DNA of 64,000 nt from Acidimicrobiales bacterium (GCA_965216675.1 CBDCGK010000004.1:455692-519691), one strand, 5' to 3'; positions 18,911 to 50,560 are shown, counted from the first letter of the stretch. Numbers and translations are program-made. The notes: generated by a model from the letters alone, not told the origin.

Positions 18911-18966
18911 CCGAACTTTGAGCCTCCCACGACCCGGAAATGGGTCGCCGGCGGCCCAAAGTTCGG
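18911..18966 (+). other. Structured intercistronic element: 10-bp outer stem (CCGAACTTTG / CAAAGTTCGG) enclosing a 6-bp hairpin (CGACCC-ggaaat-GGGTCG)
   Basis: Read directly. It occupies most of the 85-bp spacer between the acetaldehyde dehydrogenase and aldolase genes. Confidence 0.4.
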
Positions 18967-18988
18967 TGGGATCCCAAGGAGACCGACC

Positions 18989-20038
18989 ATGACCGTCCCC
19001 GCCCCACTCCCCCGGACCTTTTGCGACACCCTCGACGTCCGGGTCACCGACACGTCGCTTCGCGACGGCTCGCACGCCAAACGTCATCGGTTCACCGAGG
19101 CTCACGTCCGCTCGATCGTGGCCGCGTTGGACGACGCCGGCATGCCCGTCATCGAGGTGACCCACGGCGACGGGCTCGGCGGCTCGTCCTACAACTACGG
19201 CCACTCCCTGGTCGATGAACGCATCCTGATGAAAGCCGCCGTCGACCAGGCGGTCAACGCCAAGATCGCCGCCCTGATGCTGCCGGGCCTCGGCACCAAG
19301 GACGACATCAAGGCCATCGCCGAGATCGGCGTGTCGATCGTACGGGTAGCCACCCATTGCACCGAGGCCGATATCTCCGAACAGCACTTCGGGCTGGCCC
19401 GGGAGATCGGCCTGGAAACCGTCGGGTTCCTGATGATGGCCCACACGTCGTCGCCCGAGGACCTGGCCTCACAGGCCCGCATCATGACCGATGCCGGCTG
19501 CCAATGCGTGTACGTCGTCGACTCGGCCGGGGCCATGATCCTGGAGGACGCCTCGGACCGGGTGGCCGCCGTCGTGGCCGAACTCGGTGACGACGCCCAG
19601 GTCGGCTTCCACGGCCACGAGAACCTGTCACTGTCGCTGGCCAACACCCTCGCGGCCATGCGGGCCGGGGCCGTCCAGGTCGACGGCTCGACCCGCCGGT
19701 TCGGCGCCGGGTCCGGCAACACGAGCTGTGAGGCGTTGGCCGCGGTCACCGAGCGCCTCGGCATCAACTCCGGGCTCGACGTCTTGAAGATGATCGACGC
19801 CGCCGAAGACGTGGTCCGCCCGGTCATGGACGGCGAGTGTGTGCTCGATCGTATGTCGCTCATCATGGGCTACGCCGGCGTCTATTCGAGCTTCCTGAAG
19901 CACGCCTACCGGGCCGCCGAACGCTACGACGTGTCGGGGGCCGACATCCTGATGGAATGCGGCAACCGAAAGCTGGTGGGCGGCCAGGAGGATCAGATCA
20001 TCCAGATCGCGGCCGACCTGGCCGCATCCCGGGGCTGA
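18989..20038 (+). CDS. mhpE: 4-hydroxy-2-oxovalerate aldolase
   Basis: [39 protein letters not shown] and [18 protein letters not shown] are the DmpG/MhpE signature blocks. Confidence 0.92.
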
Positions 20039-35833: not shown

Positions 35834-36606
35834 CAGCCTCCCTCGATGCTCGGGTACAGCGCCCGGGTCACGGTCGAGACGTCGAACGGCCGCCACTCAC
35901 CGTCGGGTAACGCCAGCCGATCGGCCACGACCCGGAGAACGGCCACGTTCCATCCGAGACCGAAATGGCTGCCCCGGACTTCGATCGCCTCGGCCTGAGG
36001 TCCGGGTGTCTGCCGGCAGGCGATGCCCGGGACGACGCCGTCGTGACGGGTCCAGATCGTCGTCGACGGTACGGGAATACGATCGACGTCGAGCCGCTGG
36101 GAGGCGAAGGCGAACTTCCAGATCGAGCCCATCAGCTCGAACAGGAAACTCACGTTCGACTGCTGGCGGTCGATCTTGATGGGCGATCCGAGGGTTATCA
36201 CCTGGCGCACCATCTCCGGACGGTTCAACGCCAACATACGGCCGAACACACCACCCAGACTCCAGCCAATGATGTCGATCGGGCCCCGATGGCGGTTGTG
36301 GAGACGGACGAGCATACGATCCAGCCCCGCCACCACATGATCGGCGGGACCGACGTTGCGCCCGATTCCCCACCCGTAGGGACGATGACCCTGACTCCAG
36401 AGGAACGTTCGCAGCGGGAGCGTCGACTGATCGGTGCCGATGAATCCTGGCACCACGAGAACCGGCCGTGACTGGGCGGACGGCGTCGACACGGCGGCCG
36501 TCACCGCGGCCAGCGGGAACGCGGCCAATTCGGGAACGGCGAGCAGCTCGCGCCACAAGCCGGCGGGCCGAACGTCGGTGGGACCGCTTTCGTCACCATC
36601 GGCCAT
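35833..36606 (-). CDS. Alpha/beta hydrolase (lipase/esterase-like)
   Basis: PVLVVPGFIGTD and IDIIGWSLGGVFGR (GxSxG nucleophile elbow). Start provisionally at ATG 36606, because AT-richer non-coding-looking sequence lies upstream. Confidence 0.6.
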   Translation of the reverse strand: MADGDESGPTDVRPAGLWRELLAVPELAAFPLAAVTAAVSTPSAQSRPVLVVPGFIGTDQSTLPLRTFLWSQGHRPYGWGIGRNVGPADHVVAGLDRMLVRLHNRHRGPIDIIGWSLGGVFGRMLALNRPEMVRQVITLGSPIKIDRQQSNVSFLFELMGSIWKFAFASQRLDVDRIPVPSTTIWTRHDGVVPGIACRQTPGPQAEAIEVRGSHFGLGWNVAVLRVVADRLALPDGEWRPFDVSTVTRALYPSIEGG

Positions 36607-36814
36607 CAGCGAGCCGTCGTCGAACGCGGCAGGGCTCAATGCGACTTCGTGCAACGGTCCGGCCTTACCATGAGGACTCAATTTTATCCGACGACGCGCC
36701 TCCACCCGGGGTCGGACCCGAGGAGGGTAAAGATACCCACCTGCGACCCCGGCAAGCCGGCGCTGTCGGATCCCGACCGCCACAGCGGGCCCAGGTTGGC
36801 TACCGTCGCAGATC

Positions 36815-38443
36815 ATGAGCGATGCAACCGGGGGACCCGACTCGTACGACGCCGACGCGCCCGAGGGCCCGTCCGAACCGGCGACGACGTCCGGCGCCAT
36901 GACGGCGACCAACCCACGACTGCCTCCTCCCCCTCCTCCAACCGATCGGCCGCCCCCGAATCCCGCCGAACGCGCACAACCCGATGTTCGATGGCCCCGA
37001 GTCGTCCGCCCACCCTCGTCGCTGAAGCCGGCATGGGTCGCAGCCGTCGTGCTCGCGGCGCTGTTGACCGACCTGGCGTTGCGTCGGGTGCCGTGGGATC
37101 AGGCGGCAACGTCGCTGCTCATCGCCGCAATCGCCCTCGGCTTGGCCGTCTCGGGCTTCGTGACATCCCGTTCGGCGCGGATCATGCTTGTCCTGGCCAC
37201 GTTTTTCGGCGCGTTCCTGACCTGGCGGACCGGGTTCTTGTTGAGCGCGTTCAACCTCCTGGCCGCCGTCGGGCTGCTGACGGCAGCGGCCGCGTTCGGT
37301 CGCCGTGGCGACATCTGGAACGCCGGGCCGGGGCGCCTGATCGCCGCCGCGGTGGCGGTCCTCGAGGGCATGCTCTTCGTGCCGGTCGGCGGTATCGAGG
37401 AGGCCGAGGCCCGGTACCACGCCTGGAATCGCGAAGGCAACGAGACGGCTCGGGCGGTGGTACGTGGTGTCGCCATCGCCGGTCCGACCGTCCTCGTGCT
37501 CGGCCTGCTCCTGGCTTCCGCCGACGTCGTCTTCGAGTCGTTCTTCACCGGCTACGACCTCCGACTCGGCACGCTGCTCGGCCATCTCATCCTGATGGCG
37601 GTCGGGGCGGGAGCGATGACCGTGCTGCTTCGGGTGGCCTCGCGCCGGGCGGAGCCCCGGATCACCGGCCCGGGCTGGTCGTTGGGGGTGGTCGAGGTCT
37701 CGATACTGCTGGGCTCGATCACCGCGCTGTTCGCCGTTTTCGCCTACGCCCAGCTCGTCACCGTCATGGGCGGGGCCGACGAGGCGCTGAGCCGGGCCGG
37801 GCTCGACCCCAAGCAGTTCGCCCGCCAGGGCTTCTTCCAGCTGCTCTGGGTGGCCGCGATCACCCTGGCCGTCGTGATGATTGTCAGGGTGTTGGCCGAC
37901 CGATCGGATGGGGCGCGACGGGTGGCCACGACGCTCGGTCTCGTGACGGTGGCTCTCACGCTGGTCATCGTCACGGTGGCCATGGCCCGAATAGCGTTCT
38001 ACGTCGACGACAGCGGACTCACCGCTCGACGGCTCTACGCCGCAGTCATCTCGGCCTGGATCGCCATCAGCTTCGTCCTGGTCGCCGCTCGACTCCTCGG
38101 CCTGCGCCGCGACCGGGCCTGGCTCACACCGGCCTCGGTCCTCAGCGCCGTCGTCCTCCTGCTGGTGTTGAACCTGGCCAACCCGCAGCGGCGAATCGCC
38201 GAGAACAACCTGGCTCGCAACGAGGACGTGCTTGTATGGCACGTACGTCACGACCAGTTCGTCGGTGAGGGTCGAGCCGAACTGGCCGACAACCTCGACC
38301 GCCTCTCGCCTGACCTGGCGGTCGAGGTGCGGGGGGAGCTTTGCGCCCGATACCGACACGATGGAGCCGATGACGACGGCTGGCTCTCGTTCAACGCCGG
38401 TCGAACCAGAGCAGCCGACGCCATCGGACGTCTCTGCGGTTGA
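36815..38443 (+). CDS. Polytopic membrane protein (DUF4153/DUF4173-like) with a Pro-rich N-terminus
   Basis: About 10 hydrophobic segments, with no catalytic motif that I recognise. The overlapping long ORFs on both strands have Arg/Pro/Gly-rich junk composition. Confidence 0.6.
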   Translation: MSDATGGPDSYDADAPEGPSEPATTSGAMTATNPRLPPPPPPTDRPPPNPAERAQPDVRWPRVVRPPSSLKPAWVAAVVLAALLTDLALRRVPWDQAATSLLIAAIALGLAVSGFVTSRSARIMLVLATFFGAFLTWRTGFLLSAFNLLAAVGLLTAAAAFGRRGDIWNAGPGRLIAAAVAVLEGMLFVPVGGIEEAEARYHAWNREGNETARAVVRGVAIAGPTVLVLGLLLASADVVFESFFTGYDLRLGTLLGHLILMAVGAGAMTVLLRVASRRAEPRITGPGWSLGVVEVSILLGSITALFAVFAYAQLVTVMGGADEALSRAGLDPKQFARQGFFQLLWVAAITLAVVMIVRVLADRSDGARRVATTLGLVTVALTLVIVTVAMARIAFYVDDSGLTARRLYAAVISAWIAISFVLVAARLLGLRRDRAWLTPASVLSAVVLLLVLNLANPQRRIAENNLARNEDVLVWHVRHDQFVGEGRAELADNLDRLSPDLAVEVRGELCARYRHDGADDDGWLSFNAGRTRAADAIGRLCG

Positions 38444-38450
38444 GCAATTT

Positions 38451-39830
38451 CTACGCCGGCACCTCCGGCCGGTCCCAGGCGCCGTAGCCACCGAGAATGT
38501 CGGAGACGTCACCGAATCCGGCCTGACGAAGCGAGCTGGCGGCCACCGACGAACGGTATCCACCGGCGCAGAACACCACGGTGGTCTTGTCGGGGTCGAG
38601 CTCGCCAGTCCGGCTCGGCAGTTCACCTACCGGGATGTTGACCGCACCGGGGATCGTGCCCAGCTTGGCCTCGCCCTGGTTGCGGACGTCGACCAGTTGC
38701 AGATCGTCGAGTTCGGCGCGTCGGTCGTCGAACTCCGCCACCGTCAGGCGAGATGCCCGCCGGACCCGGTCGGGATTGCCCTCCATCACCGCCAATGGGC
38801 TCTGGAGGAAGCCGACCACCCGGTCGAAACCGATTCGAGCCAGCCGGTTCTTCGCTTCGAGTTCGAAGCCGTCGTCGACGACCAGCACGATGTCGACATC
38901 GGAGGGGACGACCGACCCGGCGAACTCGGCGTAGCGGCCGTTGAGGCCGACGTTGATCGAACCTGCGAGGTGCCCCCGGGCGAAGTCCTCGGGATCCCTG
39001 CCGTCGATGATCATGGCCCCGTCGGCCACGACCCGGTCGAACCCGTCGAGATCGAGCGCCGGTGGCAGCGCGGTCTCGTCGAGCAGTTCACGGTCCTTGC
39101 GGTTGAGAATGGCGTCGTAGACGAAGTAGTCGGGGGCCGGCGGTTGGCCCTCGGTGACGAGTTCGATGAACGTCTCACGGTCGGGGGCGAGCAGGGCGTA
39201 GTTGGTCTGCTTCTGCTCCCCCATCGTCGACCAGGTGTCGGTCGACAGGTTCTTGCCGCAGGCCGAACCGGCCCCGTGGGCGGGATAGACCTTGGTGGCA
39301 TCGGGCAGCGGCATCAGCTTGTTGTGCAGGCTGTCGTAGAGCTTCTCGGCCAGTTCGTCGCGGCTGAAGCCGATCGACGCCAGCAGATCGGGGCGGCCGA
39401 CATCGCCGATGAAGAGGGTGTCGCCGGTCAACACGCCATAAGGCGTCTCGTCGCCGGCGTGCTCCCGCACCACGATGCTCATCGACTCGGGTGTGTGACC
39501 CGGCGTGTGCAGAATCTCGAGCGTGACCTCGCCGAGGCTGATCACCTCGCCGTCGGCCAGCTTGCGAGCCGGGAATTCGGGCTCGGCGACCGACGAGAAG
39601 CCGATCTCGGCGCCGGTCGCCTCGGCCAGTTCGAGGTGCCCCGACAGGAAGTCGGCGTGGAAGTGGGTCTCGAGCACCAGGTCGATGGTGAGACCCGCTT
39701 CGGTGGCGTCGGCCACGTACTCGTTGATGTCCCGGCGAGGGTCGACGACGACGGCCCGGCCGGAGGTCTCGTCACCGATCAGGTAGGAGGCGTGCGACAG
39801 GCAGTCGAGGTAGTACTGGTTGAAGATCAT
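38451..39830 (-). CDS. Persulfide dioxygenase (MBL fold) fused to two rhodanese domains (CstB-like architecture)
   Basis: LETHFHADFLSG (HxHxDH), TPGHTPES and GDTLFIGDVGRPDL. A first rhodanese-like domain follows without a catalytic Cys, then a second with VVFCAGGYRSS. Confidence 0.85.
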   Translation of the reverse strand: MIFNQYYLDCLSHASYLIGDETSGRAVVVDPRRDINEYVADATEAGLTIDLVLETHFHADFLSGHLELAEATGAEIGFSSVAEPEFPARKLADGEVISLGEVTLEILHTPGHTPESMSIVVREHAGDETPYGVLTGDTLFIGDVGRPDLLASIGFSRDELAEKLYDSLHNKLMPLPDATKVYPAHGAGSACGKNLSTDTWSTMGEQKQTNYALLAPDRETFIELVTEGQPPAPDYFVYDAILNRKDRELLDETALPPALDLDGFDRVVADGAMIIDGRDPEDFARGHLAGSINVGLNGRYAEFAGSVVPSDVDIVLVVDDGFELEAKNRLARIGFDRVVGFLQSPLAVMEGNPDRVRRASRLTVAEFDDRRAELDDLQLVDVRNQGEAKLGTIPGAVNIPVGELPSRTGELDPDKTTVVFCAGGYRSSVAASSLRQAGFGDVSDILGGYGAWDRPEVPA

Positions 39831-39915
39831 TTGTTTGCCTTTCTCGGAATCGTCCGGGCTGTGAATCGGGTCGGTTGATGAGTTGTGGGATCGGGTGTGC
39901 GGATCAGGTTGCCAA

Positions 39916-40224
39916 TCAGGTTTGGCTGTCGTGTGCCAGCATCCCGCCGGTCAGGTTGACGACGTCGCCGAATCCTCTCGACGCCAGGAACCCGGCGGCC
40001 TGACCGCTCCGGGCCCCCGATCGACAGAGGAGGACGATCCGTCGGTCGTGGCGGAGTTCGTTCGTTCGGTACGGGAGCTCGCCCAACGGGATGTTCACGG
40101 CGCCGGGCAGGGTGCCGGCGGCCACCTCCTCCGGCTCGCGAACATCGATGAGCTGTGACCCCTCACCGAGCAGCGACCGATAGTCGGTGACCGGGTGTTC
40201 GGTGTAGGTGGCTTGGGTGTGCAT
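39916..40224 (-). CDS. Single-domain rhodanese sulfurtransferase
   Basis: QLIDVREPEEVAAGTLPGAVNIPLGEL and the active-site loop VLLCRSGARSGQAA. Confidence 0.85.
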   Translation of the reverse strand: MHTQATYTEHPVTDYRSLLGEGSQLIDVREPEEVAAGTLPGAVNIPLGELPYRTNELRHDRRIVLLCRSGARSGQAAGFLASRGFGDVVNLTGGMLAHDSQT

Positions 40225-40261
40225 GGTGTCTCCTTGGGGAGTCCTGGAAACGTTCAGAGGA

Positions 40262-42046
40262 TCAAATTCGGCCCGGAGTGCTGAGAGCAGGCGTCTCGTC
40301 GGACCGGGGGCGTTCGTCGATACCCGAGGCCACGGGGTCGGCGGGTGCCGAGGCTCCGGTCACGATGGCGGCCACGGCGTCATGGGTTGAGGCGTGGATC
40401 CGGTCGACCAGACTGTCCCACAACCGGCAACGGCGTAGCACGTCGCGGACGGGTCCCTTGACGCCCGACAGGTGCAGGCTGACCCCCCGGCGGTCGAGGT
40501 CCTCGACGATCTCTCCCATGGTCTCGGCCCCGGTGGCATCGATGTCGTTGATCCCCGACGCGTCGAGGACCAGCGCGGCGGGAGGTGATACGAGGGCCCG
40601 AGTGCCGTGGGCGGCCATGAGCTTCTTGACGTGGTCGGCGTTGACGAACGAGACGGCGGCGTCGATGCGGACGATGTGGATGCCGTCGACGACGTCGACG
40701 TCATCGAATCGAGCGACGTTGCGGTAGGTGGTGGTACCGGGGACGTGACCCAGAACAGCGGTGTGCGGCTTGGACATGCGGGCGAACACCACAAGCATCG
40801 ACGCAACCACGGCAACCGCGATACCGACCTCGATTCCCAGCAACAGCGTGGCTGCGAAGGCGGTGACCAGCCCGACGAGATCGGTCTTCTTCACCGCGGC
40901 GATGTGGCGCATCTCGGCCACGTCCACCAGGCCGACGACGGCGGCGATGATGATGGCGCCCAGCGCGGCATTGGGCAGCGACCGGAAGAGCGGGGTGAGA
41001 AAGGCGATCGTGGCCAGGATCACCGCGGCGGTCACCACCGATGCGAGCGGCGTGCGGGCTCCGGCGGATTCGTTGACCGCGGTTCGGGAGAAGCCGCCGG
41101 TGACCGGGTAGCCGCCGAACAGGCCGGAGGCGACGTTGGCGGCGCCGAGGCCGATCAGCTCCTGATTCGCCTCCACCTCGTAGCGGTGGCGTCTGGCGTA
41201 GACCTTGGCCACGGCGATCGACTCCATGAAGCCGACAATCGTGATCACGATCGCGGTCGGCGCCAGGGTGGTGAGCAGTGAGCCGTCGAATGCCGGAAGG
41301 CTGAAGGCGGGCAAGGAGTCGGGGATGTCGCCGACCACCTTGACACCCTCGTCCTCGAGCGAAAGCAGTTCGACGGCCAGGATGGAGCCGACGACGACCA
41401 CGAGCGCCCCCGGCACCCGTGGCACCCATCGTTTCAGGGCGAACAGCGCACCGAGGCAGGCCATGCCGATCGTCACCGTGGCTGGATTGCTCGAACCGAG
41501 ATCGGCGATCACCCCTTCGACCGTGCCGGCGAAGCTCTCCGCCCGAGGGGGTGAGATCCCGAGCAGGTGTTTGACCTGTGAGAATCCGATGATGATGGCG
41601 GCGGCCGCGGTGAAGCCGACCAGCACCGAATGGGAGAGCAGGTTGACGAGGAAGCCGAGCCGGCCGAGCCCCATGACCAGGTGGACGATGCCGACCAGCA
41701 CCGCCAGGAGTGCGGCGGCGATGAGGTAACCGGCCGTGCCCTCCTCGACGATCGGGGCCAGGGCGGCGGCGGTCATCAGCGAGACGATGGCGACGGGGCC
41801 GACCGCAAGCTGTCGGGACGTACCGAACAACGCGTAGGCCACGATCGACACGGTCGAGGCGTACAGCCCGACTTCGGGGGGCAGGCCGGCGAGCAGGGCA
41901 TACGCCATGGCCTGGGGCACGAGCATCGCGCCGACGGTCAGACCGGCAGCCAAGTCGCTCTGGAGCCAGGCCCGGTCGTATCGCCTGAGCCACTGGGAAA
42001 CTGGAAGAATGGTGGCCAACTCCATAATGACCGAATATACGGACAT
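40262..42046 (-). CDS. SulP-family anion transporter with a C-terminal STAS domain
   Basis: DLAAGLTVGAMLVPQAMAYALLAGLPPEVGLYAS is the SulP signature. There are multiple TM segments and a C-terminal STAS domain (VLDASGINDIDATGAETMGEIVEDLDRRGVSLHLSGV). Confidence 0.9.
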   Translation of the reverse strand: MSVYSVIMELATILPVSQWLRRYDRAWLQSDLAAGLTVGAMLVPQAMAYALLAGLPPEVGLYASTVSIVAYALFGTSRQLAVGPVAIVSLMTAAALAPIVEEGTAGYLIAAALLAVLVGIVHLVMGLGRLGFLVNLLSHSVLVGFTAAAAIIIGFSQVKHLLGISPPRAESFAGTVEGVIADLGSSNPATVTIGMACLGALFALKRWVPRVPGALVVVVGSILAVELLSLEDEGVKVVGDIPDSLPAFSLPAFDGSLLTTLAPTAIVITIVGFMESIAVAKVYARRHRYEVEANQELIGLGAANVASGLFGGYPVTGGFSRTAVNESAGARTPLASVVTAAVILATIAFLTPLFRSLPNAALGAIIIAAVVGLVDVAEMRHIAAVKKTDLVGLVTAFAATLLLGIEVGIAVAVVASMLVVFARMSKPHTAVLGHVPGTTTYRNVARFDDVDVVDGIHIVRIDAAVSFVNADHVKKLMAAHGTRALVSPPAALVLDASGINDIDATGAETMGEIVEDLDRRGVSLHLSGVKGPVRDVLRRCRLWDSLVDRIHASTHDAVAAIVTGASAPADPVASGIDERPRSDETPALSTPGRI

Positions 42047-42073
42047 TTAGCTCATTTGTCAACCTGACCGGCT

Positions 42074-44926
42074 CTACAGGTAGCCGTCCATCCGATCGGC
42101 GAGGTACGGCGCACCCAAACCGGTGTAGAGGGAACGGGCGATATCGGCGTAGCGGCCGGCGGCCTCCCGGTCGCCGCGACGAGCCGCCAGTCGGGCCAGA
42201 GGGTCGGCGGCGGCGAGGCCACACGCCCACGGGACACCAAGTACCAGGTGTTCGAACTCGGCGAGGCACGGCTCTACGGCGGCGGCCATTTCGTCGGCGT
42301 CGAGACGCAGGGCGGCCTCGGCGAATCCAACAAGGCCGTTGCCACCGAGAATGTGTTCACCCATCGTCGACAGCACCGAGAGGTCGAGGTCGCCGGCCAA
42401 GGTTTCGGCCTCGTCAACCTCTCCCGTGGCGTGGAGGGCGGTGATCAGCGCGCCGTCGAAAATGGCTGCGCCATCGAAGTCAGCCAGAAGTCTGAGCAGC
42501 GCCGGAGAGTGCGTCCACTCGTCCGCGATGAGGTCGAGGAAGAACTGGCCGAATCCATGAAGGGCAAACGAGGAATCACCCCAAAAGGCATCACCGATGG
42601 CCGCGGCCCGTTCACAGAGGTCCCGAGCAGCGCCAATATCGCCTTCGAAGGCCGAGAACGTCGCACGGTTGGACAGATCCCGCCACTCGGCTATCGGCTG
42701 AGCCCGAATCCTGACGTCGTCGGTGAGCGTGCTTCTACGGAGCTGGTCGCCGCGCCCGTGCATCAACGCCGAGGTTTCCGGCGCCGCGGCGTCGGTGAAG
42801 TAGGCCCTCGACGCGGTTCGTAACCGTTCGAGCTCCACGTCGATCTCGTCCAGGCGATCGGCACCGGCAGGGCACGAGAAGGTTATGTGACGCCATTCGA
42901 GAAGCTCGAAACGCGCGTCGTCGGTCATGCCGACCGCTTCCGCCATCGCGATCGCCTGGTCGACCTGGGCGGCGCGGACAGACAGGGGTTGCCGGAAGAT
43001 GTTGAAAACCGCCGTCTTGGCCATGATCCGAGCCTTGTCGACCGAGTCGTCCTCACCGAGAAGCCGATCGGCCTCGGCCAACAGCTTCAAGGTGCTCGTG
43101 TCGCTGGGCTTGCGGAACGGGCTCCGGTTCCAGTGGGCCAGCGTTGCCGTCAGGAACAGATCCGGCCAGCCGTTGTGTCGGGCGAGATCGATGACCTGGT
43201 CCAGATGGTCGATGGCGAGACCCGGCGTGCCTCTCCGGTTGAGGAGCTCGCCGATCTCCAGCAGAACCTCGGCTCGGACTCGGGTCGGGGGCTCAACGGC
43301 AAGCACCGCTTCGAGAACTCGTACAGCACGATCATACTGATTTGCCCCGGCGGCATCGGTGGCCGCACGACGGCTGAAGGCGATCGCTTCGTCGGCGGAA
43401 ACCAACGGAATCGCGCCGAGTGTGTGAAAGGCGATCTCCATCTCGTCGGCTCCGGCTTCGGTCAACGCGTCGGCACATGCGGCATGAAGTGATGCTCGGC
43501 GTGCCCGTGTCAGGTCGCCGACGATGGCTTCCGGTACGAGTTGGTGGGAGAACCGAAATCGAGACGACGTGGTGGTCTCGTGCAGCAGTTCGGCATCGAT
43601 GGCCAGATCAACCGCGGCGAGTGCGGTCTCCGGCTCCAGGTCGGCGGCGGTGGCGGCGATCGGGAACAGGAACTCGGGCCCCAACAAGGCTCCCACCTGA
43701 ACGATGCGGCGAACGTCGTCGTTCTGGCGGCTGAGACGGCGGGTGACCAGTTCCTTGACCGACCGGGCGGTGTCTTGGCCGAGTTGGAGATCGCGAAGGC
43801 TCTCGGTCAGAAAGAGGCTGTGTCCTCCGGTGGTGGCGAACAACGGCTCGGATTCGGGGTCGGTCGCCCGACCGGTGACGGCTTCGATGAGATCCTTCGC
43901 CGCCGACTCGTCGAGGTTGCCCAGCGCCAGCTTGAGTGACGAAGCCGACCGGCACTCACTCTGTATCCAGCCATACACGTCGTTGGGAAGGTCCTGCCGG
44001 CCCGACCGGTAGGTGGTGAGTGTTGCCACCGACTCGCCGGGTAGCCGCCGATGCAGCCGCGACAGGAACGAACGAGTCGGCTCATCGGACCACTGCAGAT
44101 CATCGACGAGGATGAGAAGCGGACCGCCGGCCGCGATTCGTTCGAACACGGTGAGGAACACATCGATTCCCGCGTAGGCGTCCACCATGACGGGATCGTG
44201 GGGAAGGGCGTCGACGAGCGACGGGATCAGCGATACCAGCTGTGCCTCGACACCACGGCTCCAGCCGGCCAGACTGGCTCGGTTGTTCACGGCCAATTGA
44301 GCGAACGCGTCCCGTACGGCCTGGAGGCTCGAGGTGACGCTGGCCTCACACCTTCCGGCACACACCGTCGCCCCGTTGCCGGCGGCCATCGTCAAGACCT
44401 CGATCGCCAAGCGGGACTTCCCCGAACCGGGAGCACCCCCGATGAAGACCCGACTGTTGGCACCGCGGCCGGAGCGGAGAATCCCGTCGATCTGATCCAA
44501 TTCAGCTTTCCGACCGACGAAGGGGAACTCATCGTCGACGGCGATGTCGATCGCCAGGCTGCGCGCCCTGACCGGGCCCGATTCACCGTCGCCGCCCGGC
44601 TCCGTTTGCTGCGGCGCAATGTCGGTCAGTTCTCCAACGAACTGATAGCCGCGACCGTGGACGTTGCGCACGAATTTCTGGGTACGCCCATCGTCGCCCA
44701 GCGACCGTCGAACCTGTTTGATTCGGGTGGTCAACGCTGACTCCGAGACGAATTGATCGCCCCATACGGCATCGAGAATCGCAGCCTTCGGCACGACGCG
44801 AGCCCTCTCCGCGATCAGCAGAGCAAGCACGTCGAACGCCTGGGGTTCGAGGTGCACCTCTCCGTCCGGCCCCACCAGCCGCCTGGCGGCCACGTCAAGC
44901 GCGAAGCCGTCCCACGTGTAGGTCAT
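42074..44926 (-). CDS. STAND-type regulator: N-terminal OmpR/PhoB winged-helix DNA-binding domain, AAA/NB-ARC-like ATPase, and a long helical-repeat (TPR-like) C-terminus
   Basis: AILDAVWGDQFVSESALTTRIKQVRRSLG...VHGRGYQF (trans_reg_C), Walker A GGAPGSGKS and Walker B LLILVDDLQWSD, followed by ~600 aa of helical repeats. Confidence 0.8.
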   Translation of the reverse strand: MTYTWDGFALDVAARRLVGPDGEVHLEPQAFDVLALLIAERARVVPKAAILDAVWGDQFVSESALTTRIKQVRRSLGDDGRTQKFVRNVHGRGYQFVGELTDIAPQQTEPGGDGESGPVRARSLAIDIAVDDEFPFVGRKAELDQIDGILRSGRGANSRVFIGGAPGSGKSRLAIEVLTMAAGNGATVCAGRCEASVTSSLQAVRDAFAQLAVNNRASLAGWSRGVEAQLVSLIPSLVDALPHDPVMVDAYAGIDVFLTVFERIAAGGPLLILVDDLQWSDEPTRSFLSRLHRRLPGESVATLTTYRSGRQDLPNDVYGWIQSECRSASSLKLALGNLDESAAKDLIEAVTGRATDPESEPLFATTGGHSLFLTESLRDLQLGQDTARSVKELVTRRLSRQNDDVRRIVQVGALLGPEFLFPIAATAADLEPETALAAVDLAIDAELLHETTTSSRFRFSHQLVPEAIVGDLTRARRASLHAACADALTEAGADEMEIAFHTLGAIPLVSADEAIAFSRRAATDAAGANQYDRAVRVLEAVLAVEPPTRVRAEVLLEIGELLNRRGTPGLAIDHLDQVIDLARHNGWPDLFLTATLAHWNRSPFRKPSDTSTLKLLAEADRLLGEDDSVDKARIMAKTAVFNIFRQPLSVRAAQVDQAIAMAEAVGMTDDARFELLEWRHITFSCPAGADRLDEIDVELERLRTASRAYFTDAAAPETSALMHGRGDQLRRSTLTDDVRIRAQPIAEWRDLSNRATFSAFEGDIGAARDLCERAAAIGDAFWGDSSFALHGFGQFFLDLIADEWTHSPALLRLLADFDGAAIFDGALITALHATGEVDEAETLAGDLDLSVLSTMGEHILGGNGLVGFAEAALRLDADEMAAAVEPCLAEFEHLVLGVPWACGLAAADPLARLAARRGDREAAGRYADIARSLYTGLGAPYLADRMDGYL

Positions 44927-45021
44927 CCCAGGAAGTGTAGTGGCAGCGCAAAATCGGTCTCGTGTTGCCGTGGTTCGTGACGGTTACCCGCTGCGGTTCG
45001 GTCGGCGCAGCTCTGGGGCCG

Positions 45022-45044
45022 CGACGAAGCGGGACCGCTCGTCG
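45022..45044 (-). terminator. Hairpin directly after the sqr stop codon (CGACGAGCG-gtcc-CGCTTCGTCG on the minus strand, one bulge)
   Basis: Read directly. There is no U-tract, so an intrinsic terminator is only tentative. Confidence 0.3.
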
Positions 45045-45045
45045 G

Positions 45046-46245
45046 TCAGGCTCGACCCTTGAGCATGAGGTTCCAATACAGGAACGGCAGGCCGTACTTC
45101 TTGAGATACCACATGTCCCGACGGGGCTTGGTGGTGTCGATCACGGGGAACGAGGGCGCGGGCTCGGTCGAGTAGTCGAACTCGGCCAGCAACATCTCGT
45201 GCCGCGACGTCGTGAGCGGGCACGAGGAGTAGCCTTCGTAGCGCTCGGTTGGATCCTTGCTTTCGAGCTGGCGGAGAACGTTGGCCGCCACCACCGGGGC
45301 CTGTTTGCGGATGGCGGCCCCGGTCTTCGAGTTCGGCGTCGAGCCGGCATCGCCCAGCGAGAAGATGTTGGGGTAGCGAACGTGTTGATGCGTGTGCTTG
45401 TCGACGTCGACGTAACCTGTCGGCTGATCGGTCGACAGCGGGCTCGACTTGATCCAGTCCGGTGCCGACTGGTGAGGAACGACGTGCATGACGTCGTAGG
45501 GCAACGTGAAGTTGGCACCGCCCTCGTTCATCGGCATGAACGTCGCCTTGCGGCCGGCGACATCGACCGATTCGAGTTCCGCTTCGGTGTGGAGGTTGAT
45601 GCCGTAGCCGTCGACGACCCTGTCGAGGGCGTCAGCGAACACCTTCACGCCGAAGATGCGAGGCGTCGGCACGACGAGATGCACGTCGATGTCGCCCAAG
45701 ACCCCCTGCTCCTGCCAGTAATCACAGGCCAGGTAGGCGATCTTCTGGGGTGCCCCACCGCACTTGATCGGGCCGGACGGCATGGTGAACACTGCCGTGC
45801 CCGACCGGGTGTTCCTGATGAAGTCCCAGGTCTTGGGAGCGAGATCGTAGGTGTAGTTCGACGAGACGCCATCGCGGCCGAGCGTGTCGGTCACTCCGGG
45901 AATACGGTCCCAGTCGAGCTGGATGCCGGGGCACACGACCAGAACGTCGTAGCCGATGGTCTTGCCGCCGCTGGTGAGCACCACGTTGTTGGCCGGATCG
46001 AACTCCGTGGCCGCGTCGCGAATCCAGGTGGCCTCCCTCGGCATGACCGATGCCTCGGACCGCATACTCGTCTCGCGTTTGGCGCAGCCGCCGCCGACGA
46101 GGGTCCAGAGTGGCTGATAGTAGTGTTTGTCGGACGGCTCGATCACCGCGAAGCTGTCGACCTTGCCGGCAAGGCGGGCAGCGACGGAGATGCCGGCGGT
46201 ACCTCCGCCGACGATGACGACTCGGTAGTGGGATGTGGTGGCCAT
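45046..46245 (-). CDS. sqr: Sulfide:quinone oxidoreductase (type II, SQOR-like)
   Basis: RVVIVGGGTAGISVA (FAD GxGxxG), YYQPLWTLVGGG, GPIKCGGAPQK and YSSCPL (the two redox Cys contexts of type II SQR), plus GDAGSTPNSKTGAA. Confidence 0.85.
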   Translation of the reverse strand: MATTSHYRVVIVGGGTAGISVAARLAGKVDSFAVIEPSDKHYYQPLWTLVGGGCAKRETSMRSEASVMPREATWIRDAATEFDPANNVVLTSGGKTIGYDVLVVCPGIQLDWDRIPGVTDTLGRDGVSSNYTYDLAPKTWDFIRNTRSGTAVFTMPSGPIKCGGAPQKIAYLACDYWQEQGVLGDIDVHLVVPTPRIFGVKVFADALDRVVDGYGINLHTEAELESVDVAGRKATFMPMNEGGANFTLPYDVMHVVPHQSAPDWIKSSPLSTDQPTGYVDVDKHTHQHVRYPNIFSLGDAGSTPNSKTGAAIRKQAPVVAANVLRQLESKDPTERYEGYSSCPLTTSRHEMLLAEFDYSTEPAPSFPVIDTTKPRRDMWYLKKYGLPFLYWNLMLKGRA

Positions 46246-46314
46246 GGGTATGTCCCCTCGGATCGACGGCCGATTGGCTACTCTCCGACGGACGCGTCGC
46301 GTTGCGAAGAGCCA

Positions 46315-46327
46315 CCTACAATGTACG
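46315..46327. promoter_or_regulatory. Near-palindrome CCTACAATGTACG upstream of sqr (candidate GntR/HutC operator)
   Basis: Read directly; 10 of 13 positions are symmetric around a central A. It shares the TGTACG and CGGACA words with the 47170..47234 region. Confidence 0.3.
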
Positions 46328-46344
46328 TTCTTTCGGACAGCCGG

Positions 46345-47115
46345 TCAAGTCTCGGTCGATGTCGCACTGGGACGCAGCTCGGTACGCGATCCGGCCGACC
46401 AGTCGGTCACGAAACGGTACCGATCACCTCGAATCACGGTCGTTCGCCATTCGACGGGCACGCCGTCGCGACAACCTCGCCGTTCGAGAAAGAATGCGGC
46501 GTCGGACTTGGTCAGGCCCAGCAGCTTGCGATCGCCGGCAGTGGGCAGGATCGGCGTCAACCGCTCCCATCCCTGGTTCGGGACCGGCGCACCCAACTTT
46601 GCGAGTTCGTCGTAGAGCGCCGTGTGGCTGAAGTCGACATCGAGCAGCGGCGCGCCCACCGAAGCCGGAAGCCAGGCCCGATCGACGGCCAGGGGCGCGC
46701 CTCCCGCCATCCGCAGCCGCTCGAGGAGCACGAACTCCGAGTCCTCGGGCAGTTCCAGGTGGCTGGCGGCAACCGTGTCAACCACCGTCTCGAGACGCAA
46801 CACCTGGCTCGTCTGCTCGACGCCGGTCGACTCGACCGATTGGAACAGGCTGTACAGGGTGCCGAGCGATTGCTCGAACTCGGACCGGTTGACGACCGTG
46901 CCCCTCCCCCGCTCCCGCTTCAGTACGCCGGTCTTGTTGAGATGGCGCACGGCCTCCCGCACGGTGTGGCGACTCACCTCGTAGGCTTCGGTGAGCTGCA
47001 GATCGGTGGGAAACCCGTTCTCGAACTCGCCCGACTCGAGCCGTCGACGAAGATCAACCTCCAACTGAGCCCAGAGGGGCATCGGTGAACGGCGATCCAG
47101 TGGGTTGATCGACAT
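46345..47115 (-). CDS. GntR-family (HutC subfamily, UTRA domain) transcriptional regulator
   Basis: Start at MSINPLDRRSPMPLWAQL. FPTDLQLTEAYEVSRHTVREAVRHLNKTGVLKRERGRGTVV is the GntR wHTH. The C-terminal region is UTRA-like. Confidence 0.85.
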   Translation of the reverse strand: MSINPLDRRSPMPLWAQLEVDLRRRLESGEFENGFPTDLQLTEAYEVSRHTVREAVRHLNKTGVLKRERGRGTVVNRSEFEQSLGTLYSLFQSVESTGVEQTSQVLRLETVVDTVAASHLELPEDSEFVLLERLRMAGGAPLAVDRAWLPASVGAPLLDVDFSHTALYDELAKLGAPVPNQGWERLTPILPTAGDRKLLGLTKSDAAFFLERRGCRDGVPVEWRTTVIRGDRYRFVTDWSAGSRTELRPSATSTET

Positions 47116-47220
47116 GATCTGCCTTCCGGGACGTGCTGGCCTGCGCGGACCATCAGAGATCCTGTTGTTCGGACTTACAAAGTTAACACAGGATATGTCC
47201 GTTGCGGCACTCCCGCTGAA

Positions 47221-47234
47221 ATTGTACGGACAAT
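47221..47234. promoter_or_regulatory. 5-4-5 inverted repeat ATTGT-acgg-ACAAT in the gntR / rhodanese divergent spacer (candidate GntR operator)
   Basis: Read directly. A second imperfect inverted repeat, CGGACTTA...ATATGTCCG, lies at 47170-47201. Confidence 0.35.
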
Positions 47235-47285
47235 CAGTTCCCGTGGCCGATACCATTGGCCCCGAACCACTGCGAGGAGTGTCCG

Positions 47286-47741
47286 ATGATTCGCAAGCCG
47301 CAAGAACGACCACCGTTCCGATCAGTCAGGAAGGTTCTTCCCCTCGCCGTCGCGCTGACCGTCATGGTGACGGCCTGTTCGTCGGCCGGCGACCAGCGCG
47401 AGGGCGCCGGCGATGCTGCGGCCATCCGCGTGGTCGAGCCGACCGCCGCCGTCGAACTTCTCGACGACGGCACCGACCGGGTCCTCATCGACGTGCGAAC
47501 CCCCGAGGAGTTCGACGAAGCCCACCTCGACGGAGCCATGCTCATCGACTTCTACCGGGATGATTTCGAGGCGGCGATCGATGAACTCGACCGCGACCAG
47601 CCGTACGTCATCTACTGCCGCTCCGGCAACCGCAGCGGCCAGGCCCGGGAACTGATGGCCGAGCTGGGCTTCACCGACGTCGCCGACATCGACGGCGGGA
47701 TCGTCGCCTGGGAAGCCGACGGCCTACCGACCGTCAAGTGA
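47286..47741 (+). CDS. Rhodanese-domain lipoprotein
   Basis: Start at MIRKPQ. LPLAVALTVMVTAC is a signal peptide with a lipobox. VLIDVRTPEEFDEAHLDGA and the active-site VIYCRSGNRSGQA. Confidence 0.75.
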   Translation: MIRKPQERPPFRSVRKVLPLAVALTVMVTACSSAGDQREGAGDAAAIRVVEPTAAVELLDDGTDRVLIDVRTPEEFDEAHLDGAMLIDFYRDDFEAAIDELDRDQPYVIYCRSGNRSGQARELMAELGFTDVADIDGGIVAWEADGLPTVK

Positions 47742-48229
47742 CCGACCGTCTCGCCGGCTGGCTCTTCGTGGCCGCACAGGCGGTGCTGCTGGTTGCGTTG
47801 GTGGTGCTCCCCCGTGCCGATCACTGGCCCGTCCCCACCTGGCTGAATGTGATCGGATACGGGCTGATGGCCGTCGGGTTCGCGCTGGTCGTCGTGGCCG
47901 GCCTGCGACTCGGGCCGAGCCTGACACCGACACCGGTGCCGACCGAGCACGGCCGTCTCACCACCACCGGCCTGTATCGGATCAGCCGACATCCGATCTA
48001 CACGGGGGTTCTGGCCATCGTGGCCGGGATCACCGTCCGCTCGGCCAGCTACGCGGTCGCCGCCGTCGGGCTGTTGACTGTGGCGTTCTTCACCGTGAAG
48101 GCGCGCTGGGAGGAGGATCGGTTGCGGGAACGCTACGCCGACTACGACGCCTACGCCGCCGCCACCGGGCGATTCCTGCCCCGCCTTCAGCCTCGGATGC
48201 CCCGGTCGGAGGTCAATCGGCGGCGATGA
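47738..48229 (+). CDS. Isoprenylcysteine carboxyl methyltransferase (ICMT/PEMT)-like membrane methyltransferase
   Basis: Four hydrophobic segments, then TTGLYRISRHPIYTGV...EEDRLRERYADY, typical of the ICMT/NnrU-type family. GTGA overlap with the rhodanese gene. Confidence 0.7.
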   Translation: MTDRLAGWLFVAAQAVLLVALVVLPRADHWPVPTWLNVIGYGLMAVGFALVVVAGLRLGPSLTPTPVPTEHGRLTTTGLYRISRHPIYTGVLAIVAGITVRSASYAVAAVGLLTVAFFTVKARWEEDRLRERYADYDAYAAATGRFLPRLQPRMPRSEVNRRR

Positions 48230-49475
48230 ACCCTTCGGCCGCGAGCCGATCGATCTCGTCGTCGTCGAAGCCGAGTTCGGTGAGCACATTCCGGCTGTCG
48301 GATCCGACCGATGGCACCGGACCGCCGGGGGCGACGTCGACCCCGGCGATCTTGATCGGAACGGCCACCGTCTCGATGGGCACGCCGAGATCACCATCGG
48401 ACACCGTCGGCTCGTCGCCACTGGTGTCGAGCCGGTGGGCCAGCGGCACCATGTAGCCGTTGGCCCGGATCTGCTTGTCCTTCACCACCTCGTCAAGCGG
48501 CTGGACCGGGGCCCAGACTATGTTCTCCTCATCGAGCAGCCGGCCCCATTCGGCCGCCGTCTTCGTCAGCAGCTGCTGGTCGATGATCGGCACCAGTTCG
48601 GCCATGTTCCGGTACCGATCACGGGGGGTGGCGAACCGCTCCTCGTCGAGCACCCACTCCAGGCCCAGCTGGCGGCAGAACGTCGGAAACGTCTCCGGAA
48701 CCGGCATGTTGACCAGCAGCCACACCCCGTCGCCACACCGGTAGGTGTTCACGGCGGCGTTGAGCGCCTCGTGGCGATTCCGGGCCGTCGGACGCCGGCC
48801 GTCGATCAGCGCGGTCGACACATCGCCGGCGATGGCCCACAACGAGTTGGCCAACAGGCTCGTCTCCACCACTTGGAACTCACCGGTGCGTTCGGCCAGC
48901 CTGAGCGCGGCCAGCACACCGGCCAGCAGGGCGAGGCCGCTGGAGTGATCACCGGCCGCCTGGGGAAACCGCGAGGGCTGGCCGGTATCGGGGTCCGAAC
49001 TCATGTCAGCAAACCCGCCCCTGGCGAAGTAGGCGGTCACATCGAAGCCGGGGCGGTCCGCCTCCTCCCCCTTGGTTCCGTAGCCGGTCAGGGTGGCGTG
49101 GACCAGGCTGGGGTTGACCGCCCGCAGGCTGTCGGGGTCGAAACGGTAGCGCTGCTGGCGGCTCGGCAACATGTTGCACACGAACACCTGGGCGGTGGCG
49201 ACGAGGCGATGCATGATCGCCTGGCCCGCCTCGGTCGTGACGTCGACCGCCAACGACCGTTTGCCCCTATTGTCGACCGCGAATGCGGCGTCGAAGTCGA
49301 TCTTCCGGCCGTCGAGTTTCGGCTGGCGCATCAGCCCGCGATAGGTGTCGCCGGTCGGCGGCTCGATCTTGATCACGTCGGCGCCGAGGTCGGCCATGAT
49401 GGCGCCCGCGCTGGGCGCGGCGACGAAGCTCGCCATCTCCACCACCCGCACGCCGTCAAGTGGCTTGACCGTCAT
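48213..49475 (-). CDS. Family III CoA-transferase (CaiB/BaiF family)
   Basis: LDGVRVVEMASFVAAPSAGAIMADLGADVIKIEPP..GD is the characteristic N-terminus, with the catalytic Asp region GDHSSGLALL. Confidence 0.85.
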   Translation of the reverse strand: MTVKPLDGVRVVEMASFVAAPSAGAIMADLGADVIKIEPPTGDTYRGLMRQPKLDGRKIDFDAAFAVDNRGKRSLAVDVTTEAGQAIMHRLVATAQVFVCNMLPSRQQRYRFDPDSLRAVNPSLVHATLTGYGTKGEEADRPGFDVTAYFARGGFADMSSDPDTGQPSRFPQAAGDHSSGLALLAGVLAALRLAERTGEFQVVETSLLANSLWAIAGDVSTALIDGRRPTARNRHEALNAAVNTYRCGDGVWLLVNMPVPETFPTFCRQLGLEWVLDEERFATPRDRYRNMAELVPIIDQQLLTKTAAEWGRLLDEENIVWAPVQPLDEVVKDKQIRANGYMVPLAHRLDTSGDEPTVSDGDLGVPIETVAVPIKIAGVDVAPGGPVPSVGSDSRNVLTELGFDDDEIDRLAAEGFIAAD

Positions 49476-49576
49476 CAGCTCGTTCCCTGTCGGTTCACGG
49501 CTCCGATTATCGCATTCGAACCGGGTCAGGACATTTTCGGAGCCGACGAATCCCCACGACGGCTACCGTTGCATCC

Positions 49577-50560
49577 GTGACCGTCGTCCGAGCCCGCAGC
49601 CTGGTGAAACAGTTCGGTGAACACCGAGCCGTCGACGGTATCGACTTCGACATCGAGCCCGGCGAGACCTTCGCCATGCTCGGGCCCAACGGCGCCGGCA
49701 AGTCGTCGACGATGAAGATGATCTCCACGGTCAGCCCGGTGACCTCCGGCGAACTCCGAGTACTCGGGCGGGATCCGGCCACCGACGGCCGTCGGATACG
49801 GGCCAGGCTTGGCGTGGTTCCCCAGGAGGACATCCTGGACATGGCACTGACGGTGAGGGAGAACATCACCGTCTACGGTCGGTACTTCGGTCTGATGCGT
49901 TCCGAGGCCCGCCACCGGGCCGACGAGCTTCTTGCGTTCGTCCAGCTCGCCGATCGGGCCGATGACCAGGTCCGCCCGCTGTCGGGCGGCATGAAACGGC
50001 GGCTGTCGATCGCCCGGTCGATGGTGAACAACCCCGAGCTGATCCTGCTCGACGAACCGACGACCGGCCTGGACCCGCAGGCCCGCCATCTGCTGTGGGA
50101 ACGGCTCTACCAGCTGAAGCGGCAAGGCGTCACCCTCCTGTTGACGACCCACTACATGGATGAGGCCGAGCAGCTCGCCGACCGGCTCGTCATCATGGAC
50201 CGGGGTCGTATCGTCACCGAGGGCACACCACGGTCGCTGATCGAAACCCACTGCAGCCGCGACGTCATCGAACTCCGCTTCGGCGACCCCGCTCTTGGCC
50301 CGGCCGACGCCGAGGAGCCCGCGAACGGTGGAGAACCCGGCGAGGGTGGCGCCGACGCGGTCCGCGTCGAGGAGGTGGCGGCGCGGCTCGGACTGCGCAG
50401 CGAGCGGCTTCCCGATCGGGTCCTGATCTACGCTGACGACGGCGACGGAGCGCTGGCGGCGTTGGCGGAACAGGATGTCGCTGCGGCGAGCACACTCACT
50501 CGGAGGGCCACCCTGGAGGATGTGTTCCTCACCCTCACCGGGAGGACACTCGTTGAGTAG
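49577..50560 (+). CDS. ABC transporter ATP-binding protein (DrrA/NodI-like, ABC-2 type exporter)
   Basis: GPNGAGKSST (Walker A), LSGGMKRRLSIA (signature) and LILLDEPTTGLD (Walker B). GTG start. Confidence 0.9.
   Translation: MTVVRARSLVKQFGEHRAVDGIDFDIEPGETFAMLGPNGAGKSSTMKMISTVSPVTSGELRVLGRDPATDGRRIRARLGVVPQEDILDMALTVRENITVYGRYFGLMRSEARHRADELLAFVQLADRADDQVRPLSGGMKRRLSIARSMVNNPELILLDEPTTGLDPQARHLLWERLYQLKRQGVTLLLTTHYMDEAEQLADRLVIMDRGRIVTEGTPRSLIETHCSRDVIELRFGDPALGPADAEEPANGGEPGEGGADAVRVEEVAARLGLRSERLPDRVLIYADDGDGALAALAEQDVAAASTLTRRATLEDVFLTLTGRTLVE

Follow-up and report, generated by a model that had tools for sequence, protein, structure and literature searches.

A GntR/HutC-family regulator as the probable repressor of a sulfide-oxidation cluster in an Acidimicrobiales bacterium

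The dedicated sensors of hydrogen sulfide and reactive sulfur species (RSS) described so far belong to the CsoR, ArsR and Fis superfamilies, and most of them use a pair of cysteines; OxyR, PerR and MarR act as secondary RSS sensors (PMC13467558). The cst operon of Staphylococcus aureus (cstR / tauE-cstA-cstB-sqr) combines a type II sulfide:quinone oxidoreductase (SQR), the three-domain CstB, one or more sulfurtransferases and an anion transporter, and places them under a dedicated local repressor with its operator at the promoters. A comparable gene set lies in a 64-kb stretch of DNA (hereafter the window; GC content approx. 66%) from an Acidimicrobiales bacterium. Between positions 38451 and 47115, six minus-strand genes encode a CstB-like persulfide dioxygenase, a single-domain rhodanese, a SulP-STAS transporter, a 950-aa STAND regulator, a type II SQR and a GntR/HutC-family regulator, and a local repressor with operators at the promoters is predicted here as well.

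The approx. 53 coding-like open reading frames (ORFs) of the window were scanned against Pfam, with further checks by NCBIfam, PDB matches and tblastn. All six ORFs were confirmed at these coordinates and with these domains. The gene series reported by a first-pass annotation of the stretch is thus correct, and domains and structure matches equally confirm the module that it had recognized, i.e. SQR, a CstB-type fusion of persulfide dioxygenase and rhodanese, a rhodanese and an anion transporter. It had further proposed that the GntR protein, the STAND protein or both represent a new sulfide-responsive regulator. Only the first half of this proposal stands: the GntR gene is conserved next to sqr and its operator occurs at three control regions, whereas the STAND gene is absent from related clusters. 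On these comparative grounds, the GntR/HutC protein very likely represses the cluster and represents a type of regulator new to sulfide-oxidation genes. No report of a GntR-type regulator of sqr, persulfide, rhodanese or thiosulfate genes was found in the literature.

The GntR/HutC regulator, its operator and its ligand pocket

Genomic neighbourhoods were compared in 80 loci of close SQR relatives, whose flanks of up to 10 kb were searched by tblastn with the window proteins. Tallies refer to the 62 assessable loci that extend 3 kb or more to either side of sqr, and individual loci are cited by number where needed. A gntR gene lies directly upstream of sqr and on the same strand in 15 of the 62 loci, and at most 10 kb away in five more. 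Loci with gntR near sqr span Acidimicrobiia, Arthrobacter, Knoellia and Brachybacterium, with identities to the window protein from 91% down to 39% (65-91% in Acidimicrobiia, 39-45% in Arthrobacter and other Actinomycetota). The orthologue is found immediately upstream of sqr in the Acidimicrobiia relatives, and the order in Arthrobacter is gntR-sqr-cstB-tauE. Relatives with 93-94% GntR identity have the order gntR-sqr-sulP-(rhd)-cstB and share the flanks of the window (CoA-transferase, ABC transporter, WS/DGAT, TetR and carboxyltransferase genes). The linkage of gntR to sqr thus recurs in the comparison of related genomes that the first-pass annotation had proposed. Look-ups centred on GntR instead of SQR also reach sulfur genes, namely those for CstB, SulP, YeeE/YedE and a Soe/Psr-like molybdenum (Mo) enzyme. 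For instance, one orthologue with 77-79% identity adjoins a Soe/Psr-like pair of Fe-S/NrfD protein and Mo-oxidoreductase, and another adjoins CstB and YeeE/YedE transporters. In near and distant orthologues alike, the neighbours consistently tie the regulator to genes of sulfur oxidation and transport.

Aligning the spacers of these loci yielded a 14-bp palindromic operator with the consensus AATGTMCGKACATT, which was scanned with up to two mismatches. The window contains three matches, compared with 0.21-0.36 expected, and all three fall in control regions of this cluster, i.e. upstream of sulP, upstream of sqr and in the spacer between gntR and a divergent rhodanese gene (Table 1). The first two overlap the -10 boxes of the promoters P_sulP and P_sqr, which were the sole sigma-70-like promoters detected by a promoter scan of 38300-48400. 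The combination of P_sulP and operator is also present upstream of sulP in L001, L002, L004, L005, L006, L013, L018, L086, L089 and L093. The -35 box of P_sqr shares bases with the stop codon of gntR, and 13 Acidimicrobiia loci have kept the promoter block TGTCCGAAAGAMCGTACATT. In Arthrobacter-type loci such as that of Arthrobacter sp. 179 (L076), the perfect palindrome AATGTACGTACATT lies upstream of sqr; Knoellia koreensis (L073) and Brachybacterium sp. UMB0905 (L058) have the gntR-sqr pair as well, with one mismatch in their operators. The gntR-rhodanese spacer holds two weaker operator-related sites (47165-47176 and 47191-47200) beside the site listed in Table 1, whose equivalent lies upstream of gntR in L006, L010, L013, L015, L018, L086-L090 (Acidimicrobiia) and L093.

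Altogether, more than 25 loci share with the window the placement of the palindrome at P_sqr, at P_sulP and ahead of gntR. We counted 52 matches in 477 kb of GntR-containing sequence versus nine in the 976 kb from GntR-free loci. Of these nine, six immediately precede sqr of Acidimicrobiia, and the mycobacterial cstB-sqr-tauE clusters contain none. Independently fetched loci (L086-L090, L093 and L094) carry the motif at every expected promoter, and seven loci with STAND orthologues (99 kb) lack it.

The operator also bears on the start of sulP. The first in-frame ATG (42046) lies inside the operator and the -10 box, and the relatives are annotated inconsistently with 594 or 587 aa. Since an ATG follows the -10 box of P_sulP by 5-8 nt in seven loci, the true start is probably the ATG at 42025, on a leaderless mRNA.

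The regulator combines a GntR domain (PF00392, 42.8 bits; cutoff 27) with a UTRA domain (PF07702, 83.7 bits; cutoff 23.8), which places it in the HutC subfamily. It scores below every NCBIfam equivalog cutoff, and its best PDB matches are NagR/YvoA (5e-26) and DasR (5e-22). No cysteine column is conserved among 23 orthologues. The single cysteine of the window protein, C229, is not conserved either, and the proteins of L002, L004, L005 and L007 are free of cysteine and keep the same operators. Persulfidation can thus not be the general mechanism of this family, and the cysteine-persulfidation readout that had been suggested for the protein loses its basis. It is almost certain that GntR works by a mechanism other than cysteine chemistry.

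When the effector site of NagR (PMC4333415) was mapped onto the GntR alignment, the phosphate- and ligand-contact residues coincided with an invariant set consisting of R133, R135, Y168 (Y167 in NagR), R212 (R211 in NagR) and E222. The sugar contacts of NagR are replaced (F89 by L, T90 by F, Y228 by I or V), and A224 of NagR corresponds to an invariant arginine. We infer from this pattern that the ligand would be a small anion, bound without the participation of a thiol. Thiosulfate or sulfite, the products of CstB, would be the leading candidates and a low-molecular-weight persulfide an alternative.

The anion transporter of the cluster matches PF00916 (8e-115), the STAS domain PF01740 (7e-15) and TIGR00815 (506.7; cutoff 380). 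SulP proteins with at least 50% identity to it occurred exclusively together with GntR (12 of 12 loci). TauE is encoded in 32 loci and in none of the 62 together with SulP, and no TauE was found in the window. Because the two never co-occur, SulP can be considered to stand in for TauE, as the first-pass annotation had assumed. The mutual exclusion supports a replacement in the anion-export role, with an outward direction of transport being presumed for SulP.

We consider it likely, if by no means certain, that the cluster forms a GntR-repressed regulon for heterotrophic sulfide oxidation that responds to a ligand-type sulfur signal. The regulon would comprise sqr, then sulP-rhd-cstB, and the divergently transcribed genes for a lipoprotein rhodanese and a membrane methyltransferase. 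GntR/HutC would repress through the 14-bp palindromes over the -10 boxes of P_sqr and P_sulP and, as the third operator implies, would regulate its own gene through the palindrome in its divergent promoter region. A small anionic sulfur metabolite derived from sulfide would fill the UTRA pocket and cause derepression, and SulP would export the anion in place of TauE. The STAND gene would remain outside this conserved circuit, although it may be read through from P_sqr. A broader proposal, namely that cysteine-free HutC/UTRA repressors constitute a fourth class of dedicated regulators besides CsoR, ArsR and Fis, bind a sulfur oxyanion or persulfide and are widespread in Acidimicrobiia and Micrococcales, is put forward tentatively and seems to us possible, if just short of probable.

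Several points speak against such a regulon. The Acidimicrobiia operator at P_sqr is not a canonical palindrome, as its half-sites are split by 6 bp, and a few SQR loci have the operator and no GntR gene within 10 kb. Three Acidimicrobiia relatives (L004, L013 and L093) also possess a CsoR-family gene, with its operator at the promoters concerned. The clade thus has a second layer of control, which could act on the present cluster from outside the 64-kb window. The screen for sensor operators covered CsoR-type sites only, not ArsR-type ones. Finally, the effector was assigned from the conserved pocket residues, and DNA binding, induction and ligand are sequence-based predictions.

Two further neighbourhoods of gntR were observed. 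In L093 (8913-13495, plus strand) and L025 (11259-15621, plus strand), a fused 4Fe-4S/NrfD protein and a molybdopterin oxidoreductase of approx. 1000 aa (Soe/Psr/Phs-like) are encoded beside the GntR orthologue. Promoter and operator of the L093 pair are nearly the same as at P_sqr. In L089, L090 and L018, an operon of cydAB, rhodanese and PEMT genes is divergent from gntR and headed by cydAB (L089, 6630-9202; L090, 7321-9893; L018, approx. 6437-8874; all minus strand), which is absent at this position of the window. The GntR operator lies in the shared cydAB-gntR spacer of L018, and the matches in L089 and L090 lie inside the annotated start of cydA. Cytochrome bd is a sulfide-resistant oxidase, and a switch to it is among the bacterial responses to hydrogen sulfide (PMC13467558).

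Alternative signals and regulators

GntR might control the cluster and sense a cue other than sulfide, such as an organosulfur compound, an amino-sugar-type metabolite or a mycothiol-like conjugate. SulP would then act as an importer, and the genes would serve sulfur assimilation or the use of thiosulfate. Such a role would suit the amino-sugar phosphates bound by the closest solved relatives, NagR and DasR, the position of GntR orthologues beside YeeE/YedE-type transporters and Mo oxidoreductases, and the cysH and CbiX-family genes that adjoin the mycobacterial cstB-sqr unit. However, precisely the residues by which NagR contacts the sugar have been exchanged. The core of the regulon (SQR, CstB and rhodaneses, joined in relatives by cytochrome bd) has functions in sulfide stress, and SulP takes exactly the place of TauE, the putative exporter. 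A non-sulfide cue is thus unlikely.

The STAND protein is well preserved. It contains a Trans_reg_C domain (OmpR-type winged helix-turn-helix, wHTH), an AAA_16 domain (72 bits) with the Walker motifs GAPGSGKS and LILVDD, and a weak TPR match. Its AlphaFold2 model reached a pLDDT of 88.9, with the STAND-TPR protein 6mfv, Apaf-1 and MalT as best Foldseek matches. Its gene has no counterpart at other sulfide loci. A tblastn search of the 80 SQR loci revealed no homologue, and the gene is also absent from the syntenic relatives L086-L090, including those with 93-94% GntR identity. Homology with relatives stops at the end of sqr, with its stop codon, and resumes approx. 10 nt past that of the STAND gene, immediately ahead of the -35 box of P_sulP. 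Elsewhere, the spacer between sqr and sulP contains an intrinsic terminator only (L001 and L018), is 47 bp long (L086) or holds a CsoR-family gene (L004 and L013).

The STAND family has hundreds of homologues, and the named close full-length matches derive from metagenome-assembled genomes (MAGs) of Acidimicrobiia or Actinomycetota. The five closest orthologues checked (63-70% identity) lie in non-sulfur contexts, namely beside methyltransferase/OsmC/FMO genes, GlnS/LTD genes or luciferase/SDR/TPP genes, and nothing was found that links the family to sulfur. The 80-locus search and these five look-ups rule the gene out as a conserved member of the cluster. Judged from its absence in relatives and from the homology junctions, it is a recent, lineage-specific insertion of a single gene, placed behind the stop codon of sqr and ahead of P_sulP. 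No target-site duplication or mobile-element signature was seen by eye at the junctions. A function in anti-phage defence was considered and rejected, as PADLOC gave no match. In L091, two STAND paralogues (1987-4827 and 6008-8863) lie nearly in tandem with two small genes between them, in the methyltransferase/OsmC/FMO context that the closest three orthologues have in common; these genomes carry the family in multiple copies.

The gene appears to have brought its own promoter along. A -10-like TACACT (44934-44939) precedes the STAND ATG at 44926 by 7 nt, and the orthologues have TAGCCT or TAACCT 6-8 nt before their ATG, which suggests a leaderless promoter acquired together with the spacer 44927-45045. 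A terminator scan found no terminator after sqr in this spacer, so that read-through from P_sqr into the STAND gene would be possible.

Could the STAND protein have been recruited in this lineage as a co-regulator, e.g. an activator, that adds a second input? The gene has the same orientation as its neighbours and lies between two GntR-controlled units, and the missing terminator, the intact wHTH and Walker motifs and the confident model would all suit such a function. Moreover, the same spacer holds another regulator, the CsoR-like gene, in L004 and L013. Against this, conserved linkage with sulfur genes is lacking, the family is multi-copy with variable neighbours, and P_sulP and P_sqr are the same as in relatives without the gene. 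We consider recruitment rather improbable and favour the GntR circuit in which the STAND gene has no part.

As to known persulfide sensors, no gene of the CsoR, ArsR or sigma-54 type was found by Pfam among the ORFs of the window. PF02583 matched none of them, tblastn found no CsoR homologue, and no gene scanned had a Sigma54_activat domain. The regulators detected by Pfam are of the PaaX, IclR, TetR, GntR and STAND types only. Within the 64-kb window, the absence of every known sensor type that the first-pass annotation had noted is thus confirmed by Pfam and by the CsoR search. The CsoR-type palindrome ATACC-N6-GGTAT does not occur in the window, even with one mismatch allowed, and is present in all 35 CsoR-containing loci (94 matches). 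Among the 62 loci, 32 have CsoR only, 17 GntR only, three both and ten neither.

A sensor of the CstR, SqrR or BigR type encoded elsewhere in the genome could still be the real switch, with GntR contributing metabolic fine-tuning only. The window covers 64 kb of a 5.17-Mb genome, and in L004, L013 and L093 a CsoR-family gene and its palindrome are combined with a GntR operator at the promoters in question. We nevertheless regard a distant sensor as quite improbable: the window lacks CsoR homologue and palindrome alike, the GntR operator occupies the short promoters, and CsoR and GntR rarely share an SQR locus. Control in trans by a CstR-type protein was rejected on the first of these grounds, given the abundance of the palindrome in CsoR-containing loci. 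That GntR, STAND or both are thiol-based sensors switched by cysteine persulfidation, as originally proposed, is very improbable. Such sensors would be in line with the lack of a locally encoded known sensor, with C229 in GntR of the window and with the conserved C193 (78 of 80) and C685 (73 of 80) of the STAND family. However, the GntR cysteine is not conserved, four cysteine-free orthologues keep their operators, and the STAND gene is absent from every related cluster and has orthologues beside methyltransferase/OsmC/FMO, GlnS or SDR/TPP genes.

The CsoR-family genes of the three relatives lie upstream of P_sulP (L004, 5177-5422; L013, 11216-11461; L093, 13512-13772; all minus strand). In L004 and L013 the gene occupies the sqr-sulP spacer, on the opposite strand, where the window has the STAND gene, and encodes a protein of 81 aa with a single cysteine, which lacks the second cysteine and the histidine of CsoR/CstR. 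In all three loci, the -35 box of P_sulP is directly adjoined by ATACC-N6-GGTAT palindromes. In L004 and L013 a palindrome also lies beside the GntR operator upstream of cstB, and the two sites side by side imply dual control there.

Gene content of the cluster and its surroundings

Table 1. Genes, promoters and predicted operators of the sulfide-oxidation cluster (window coordinates)
Feature	Position	Strand	Basis
cstB-like persulfide dioxygenase: metallo-beta-lactamase domain, Cys-less (pseudo) rhodanese, active rhodanese	38451-39830	-	Pfam Lactamase_B and two rhodanese domains, PDB
Single-domain rhodanese, active-site C67	39916-40224	-	Pfam 4e-18, sequence
SulP-STAS anion transporter	40262-42025 (probable ATG) or 42046	-	Pfam, TIGR00815
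sulP operator AATGTCCGTATATT, 1 mismatch, covering -10 box and part of the promoter spacer	42034-42047	-	Motif scan
P_sulP, TTGACA-17-TATATT, 11/12 matches	42062 to 42034	-	Promoter scan
STAND regulator, 950 aa	42074-44926	-	Pfam, AlphaFold2, Foldseek
sqr-STAND spacer	44927-45045	-	Promoter/terminator scan
Type II SQR	45046-46245	-	Human SQOR match, catalytic Cys alignment
sqr operator: right half-site CGTACATT and TGTCCG 6 bp upstream (motif match at 46320-46333)	46320-46339	-	Spacer alignment
P_sqr, TTGACC-17-TACATT	46348 to 46320	-	Promoter scan
GntR/HutC-family regulator (wHTH and UTRA)	46345-47115	-	Pfam
gntR-rhodanese divergent control region	47116-47285		Motif matches
gntR operator ATTGTACGGACAAT	47221-47234		Motif scan
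Lipoprotein-type extracytoplasmic rhodanese, lipobox VTAC	47286-47741	+	Pfam 2e-20, sequence
PEMT/ICMT-like membrane methyltransferase	47738-48229	+	Pfam PEMT 1e-12; NCBIfam isoprenylcysteine methyltransferase below cutoff

The closest matches of the SQR are found in Acidimicrobiales MAGs (92-93% identity). It resembles human type II SQOR (3e-101, 342 bits) far more than the Aquifex and Acidithiobacillus SQR structures (at most 39 bits), and the two catalytic cysteines of the human enzyme correspond to C162 and C342 in the alignment. By this closeness and the aligned cysteines, the protein is assigned to the type II SQRs; its best NCBIfam match, which stays below its cutoff, carries the name 'type III'. 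The CstB-like protein matches the three-domain structures 3tp9 (5e-91) and 3r2u over its full length. Inspection of its sequence identified the HxHxD motif, a middle rhodanese without cysteine and C421 in the motif CAGGYRS of the C-terminal rhodanese. It is kept at 62-88% identity in Acidimicrobiia loci, and the single-domain rhodanese gene is conserved between sulP and cstB in relatives.

Three elements had been missed by the first-pass annotation, namely the control region upstream of sulP (42026-42073), the divergent gene for a lipoprotein rhodanese and the adjoining gene for a PEMT/ICMT-like methyltransferase, whose start overlaps the rhodanese stop codon. Orthologues of the lipoprotein rhodanese occur near the cluster in nine Acidimicrobiia loci, and the divergent rhodanese was also found in L086-L090 and L093. 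Together, rhodanese and methyltransferase may provide a branch for the S-methylation of sulfide or thiols. The methyltransferase presumably resembles MddA; no literature tying the PEMT/ICMT-like protein to MddA was found. A pair of rhodanese and PEMT/ICMT-type genes divergent from gntR recurs in L002, L089 and L090. In L093, the rhodanese is instead paired with a methyltransferase of the TehB/Methyltransf_11 type (class I SAM).

Two ORFs and one gene start were discarded. An ORF of 269 aa (47612-48421, minus strand) without a Pfam match runs opposite the rhodanese and PEMT genes, and a long plus-strand ORF (44962-47088) is likewise antisense to real genes; both are typical high-GC shadow ORFs. 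A longer gntR starting at GTG 47313 was rejected because the N-termini of the orthologues align at 47115.

A DUF4153 membrane protein gene (36815-38443, plus strand) converges on cstB with a gap of 7 nt. A DUF4153 protein is also encoded after cstB in L002 (57% identity) and before a cstB-like gene in L074 (37%). The closest relatives, L086 and L089, lack the gene, which may represent an accessory gene or a second indel. Further away, at 2106-20038, lies an aromatic meta-cleavage-type gene set unrelated to the sulfide cluster, with PaaX- and IclR-type regulators, extradiol dioxygenase-like genes, FAA hydrolases, a Rieske oxygenase and acetaldehyde dehydrogenase/HMGL-like aldolase (DmpFG-like) genes. 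Rfam (E at most 0.1) detected no RNA elements in 36000-50000, the spacers of the cluster included.

Relation to known sulfur and ligand sensors

If the proposed role of GntR is correct, a different family of regulators, without a usable cysteine, has entered the position of a dedicated sulfide sensor. For two actinobacterial classes, operator and regulon are predicted to the base pair, which makes ligand-based rather than thiol-based sulfur sensing testable. The GntR-operator pair would be a candidate biosensor part, and the operator would allow annotation of sulfide-responsive regulons in the Acidimicrobiia, which are abundant, for the most part uncultured and include the wastewater organism Candidatus Microthrix. 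The exclusivity of SulP and TauE provides evidence of interchangeable exporters in the module. The STAND gene, in turn, is a warning that a regulator gene inside a cluster need not belong to it.

In comparison with the cst operon of S. aureus, the cluster of the window has a CstB and none of CstR, TauE and CstA. The repressor is a GntR/HutC protein without a dithiol pair instead of a CsoR-family CstR, SulP-STAS replaces TauE, and single-domain rhodaneses (39916-40224 and 47286-47741) are found instead of the multidomain CstA. Moreover, the window has two separate promoters predicted to be GntR-controlled and a divergent unit. The mycobacterial and Arthrobacter cstB-sqr-tauE clusters (L056 and L069) share an orthologous SQR at 64-66% identity, together with an orthologous CstB (73%) in L056 and a CstB-like protein (36%) in L069. 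In contrast to the window, the mycobacterial clusters contain a gene for a CsoR-like protein with two cysteines (C34 and C63) and without the histidine, as well as ATACC-N6-GGTAT operators. Arthrobacter has the same type of GntR as the window, but a TauE exporter.

Similarity to NagR (YvoA) and DasR extends from the combination of wHTH and UTRA domains to a palindromic operator with a GT...AC core and to the conserved anion site (Arg133, Arg135 and Tyr167), R211 and E222. NagR and DasR are repressors released by a small ligand, and the same logic is predicted for GntR of the window. The operator core differs (GTMCGKAC in the window, GTCTAGAC in NagR/DasR), as do the replaced sugar contacts, the additional invariant Arg224 and the regulon, which serves the use of amino sugars in the former and sulfide oxidation in the latter. 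The 950-aa protein shares the succession of P-loop NTPase and helical repeats with MalT, AfsR and Apaf-1-type STAND NTPases. Compared with SARP/AfsR, it has an N-terminal OmpR-type wHTH and lacks the BTAD domain.

The thiol-based RSS sensors CstR, SqrR/BigR and FisR depend on a conserved pair of reactive cysteines, which GntR of the window does not have. A precedent for the ligand-based sensing of inorganic sulfur anions is CysB of the LysR family, for which thiosulfate and sulfide are ligand-type anti-inducers. CysB differs from GntR in that it belongs to another protein family and activates assimilation genes rather than repressing genes of oxidation and detoxification.

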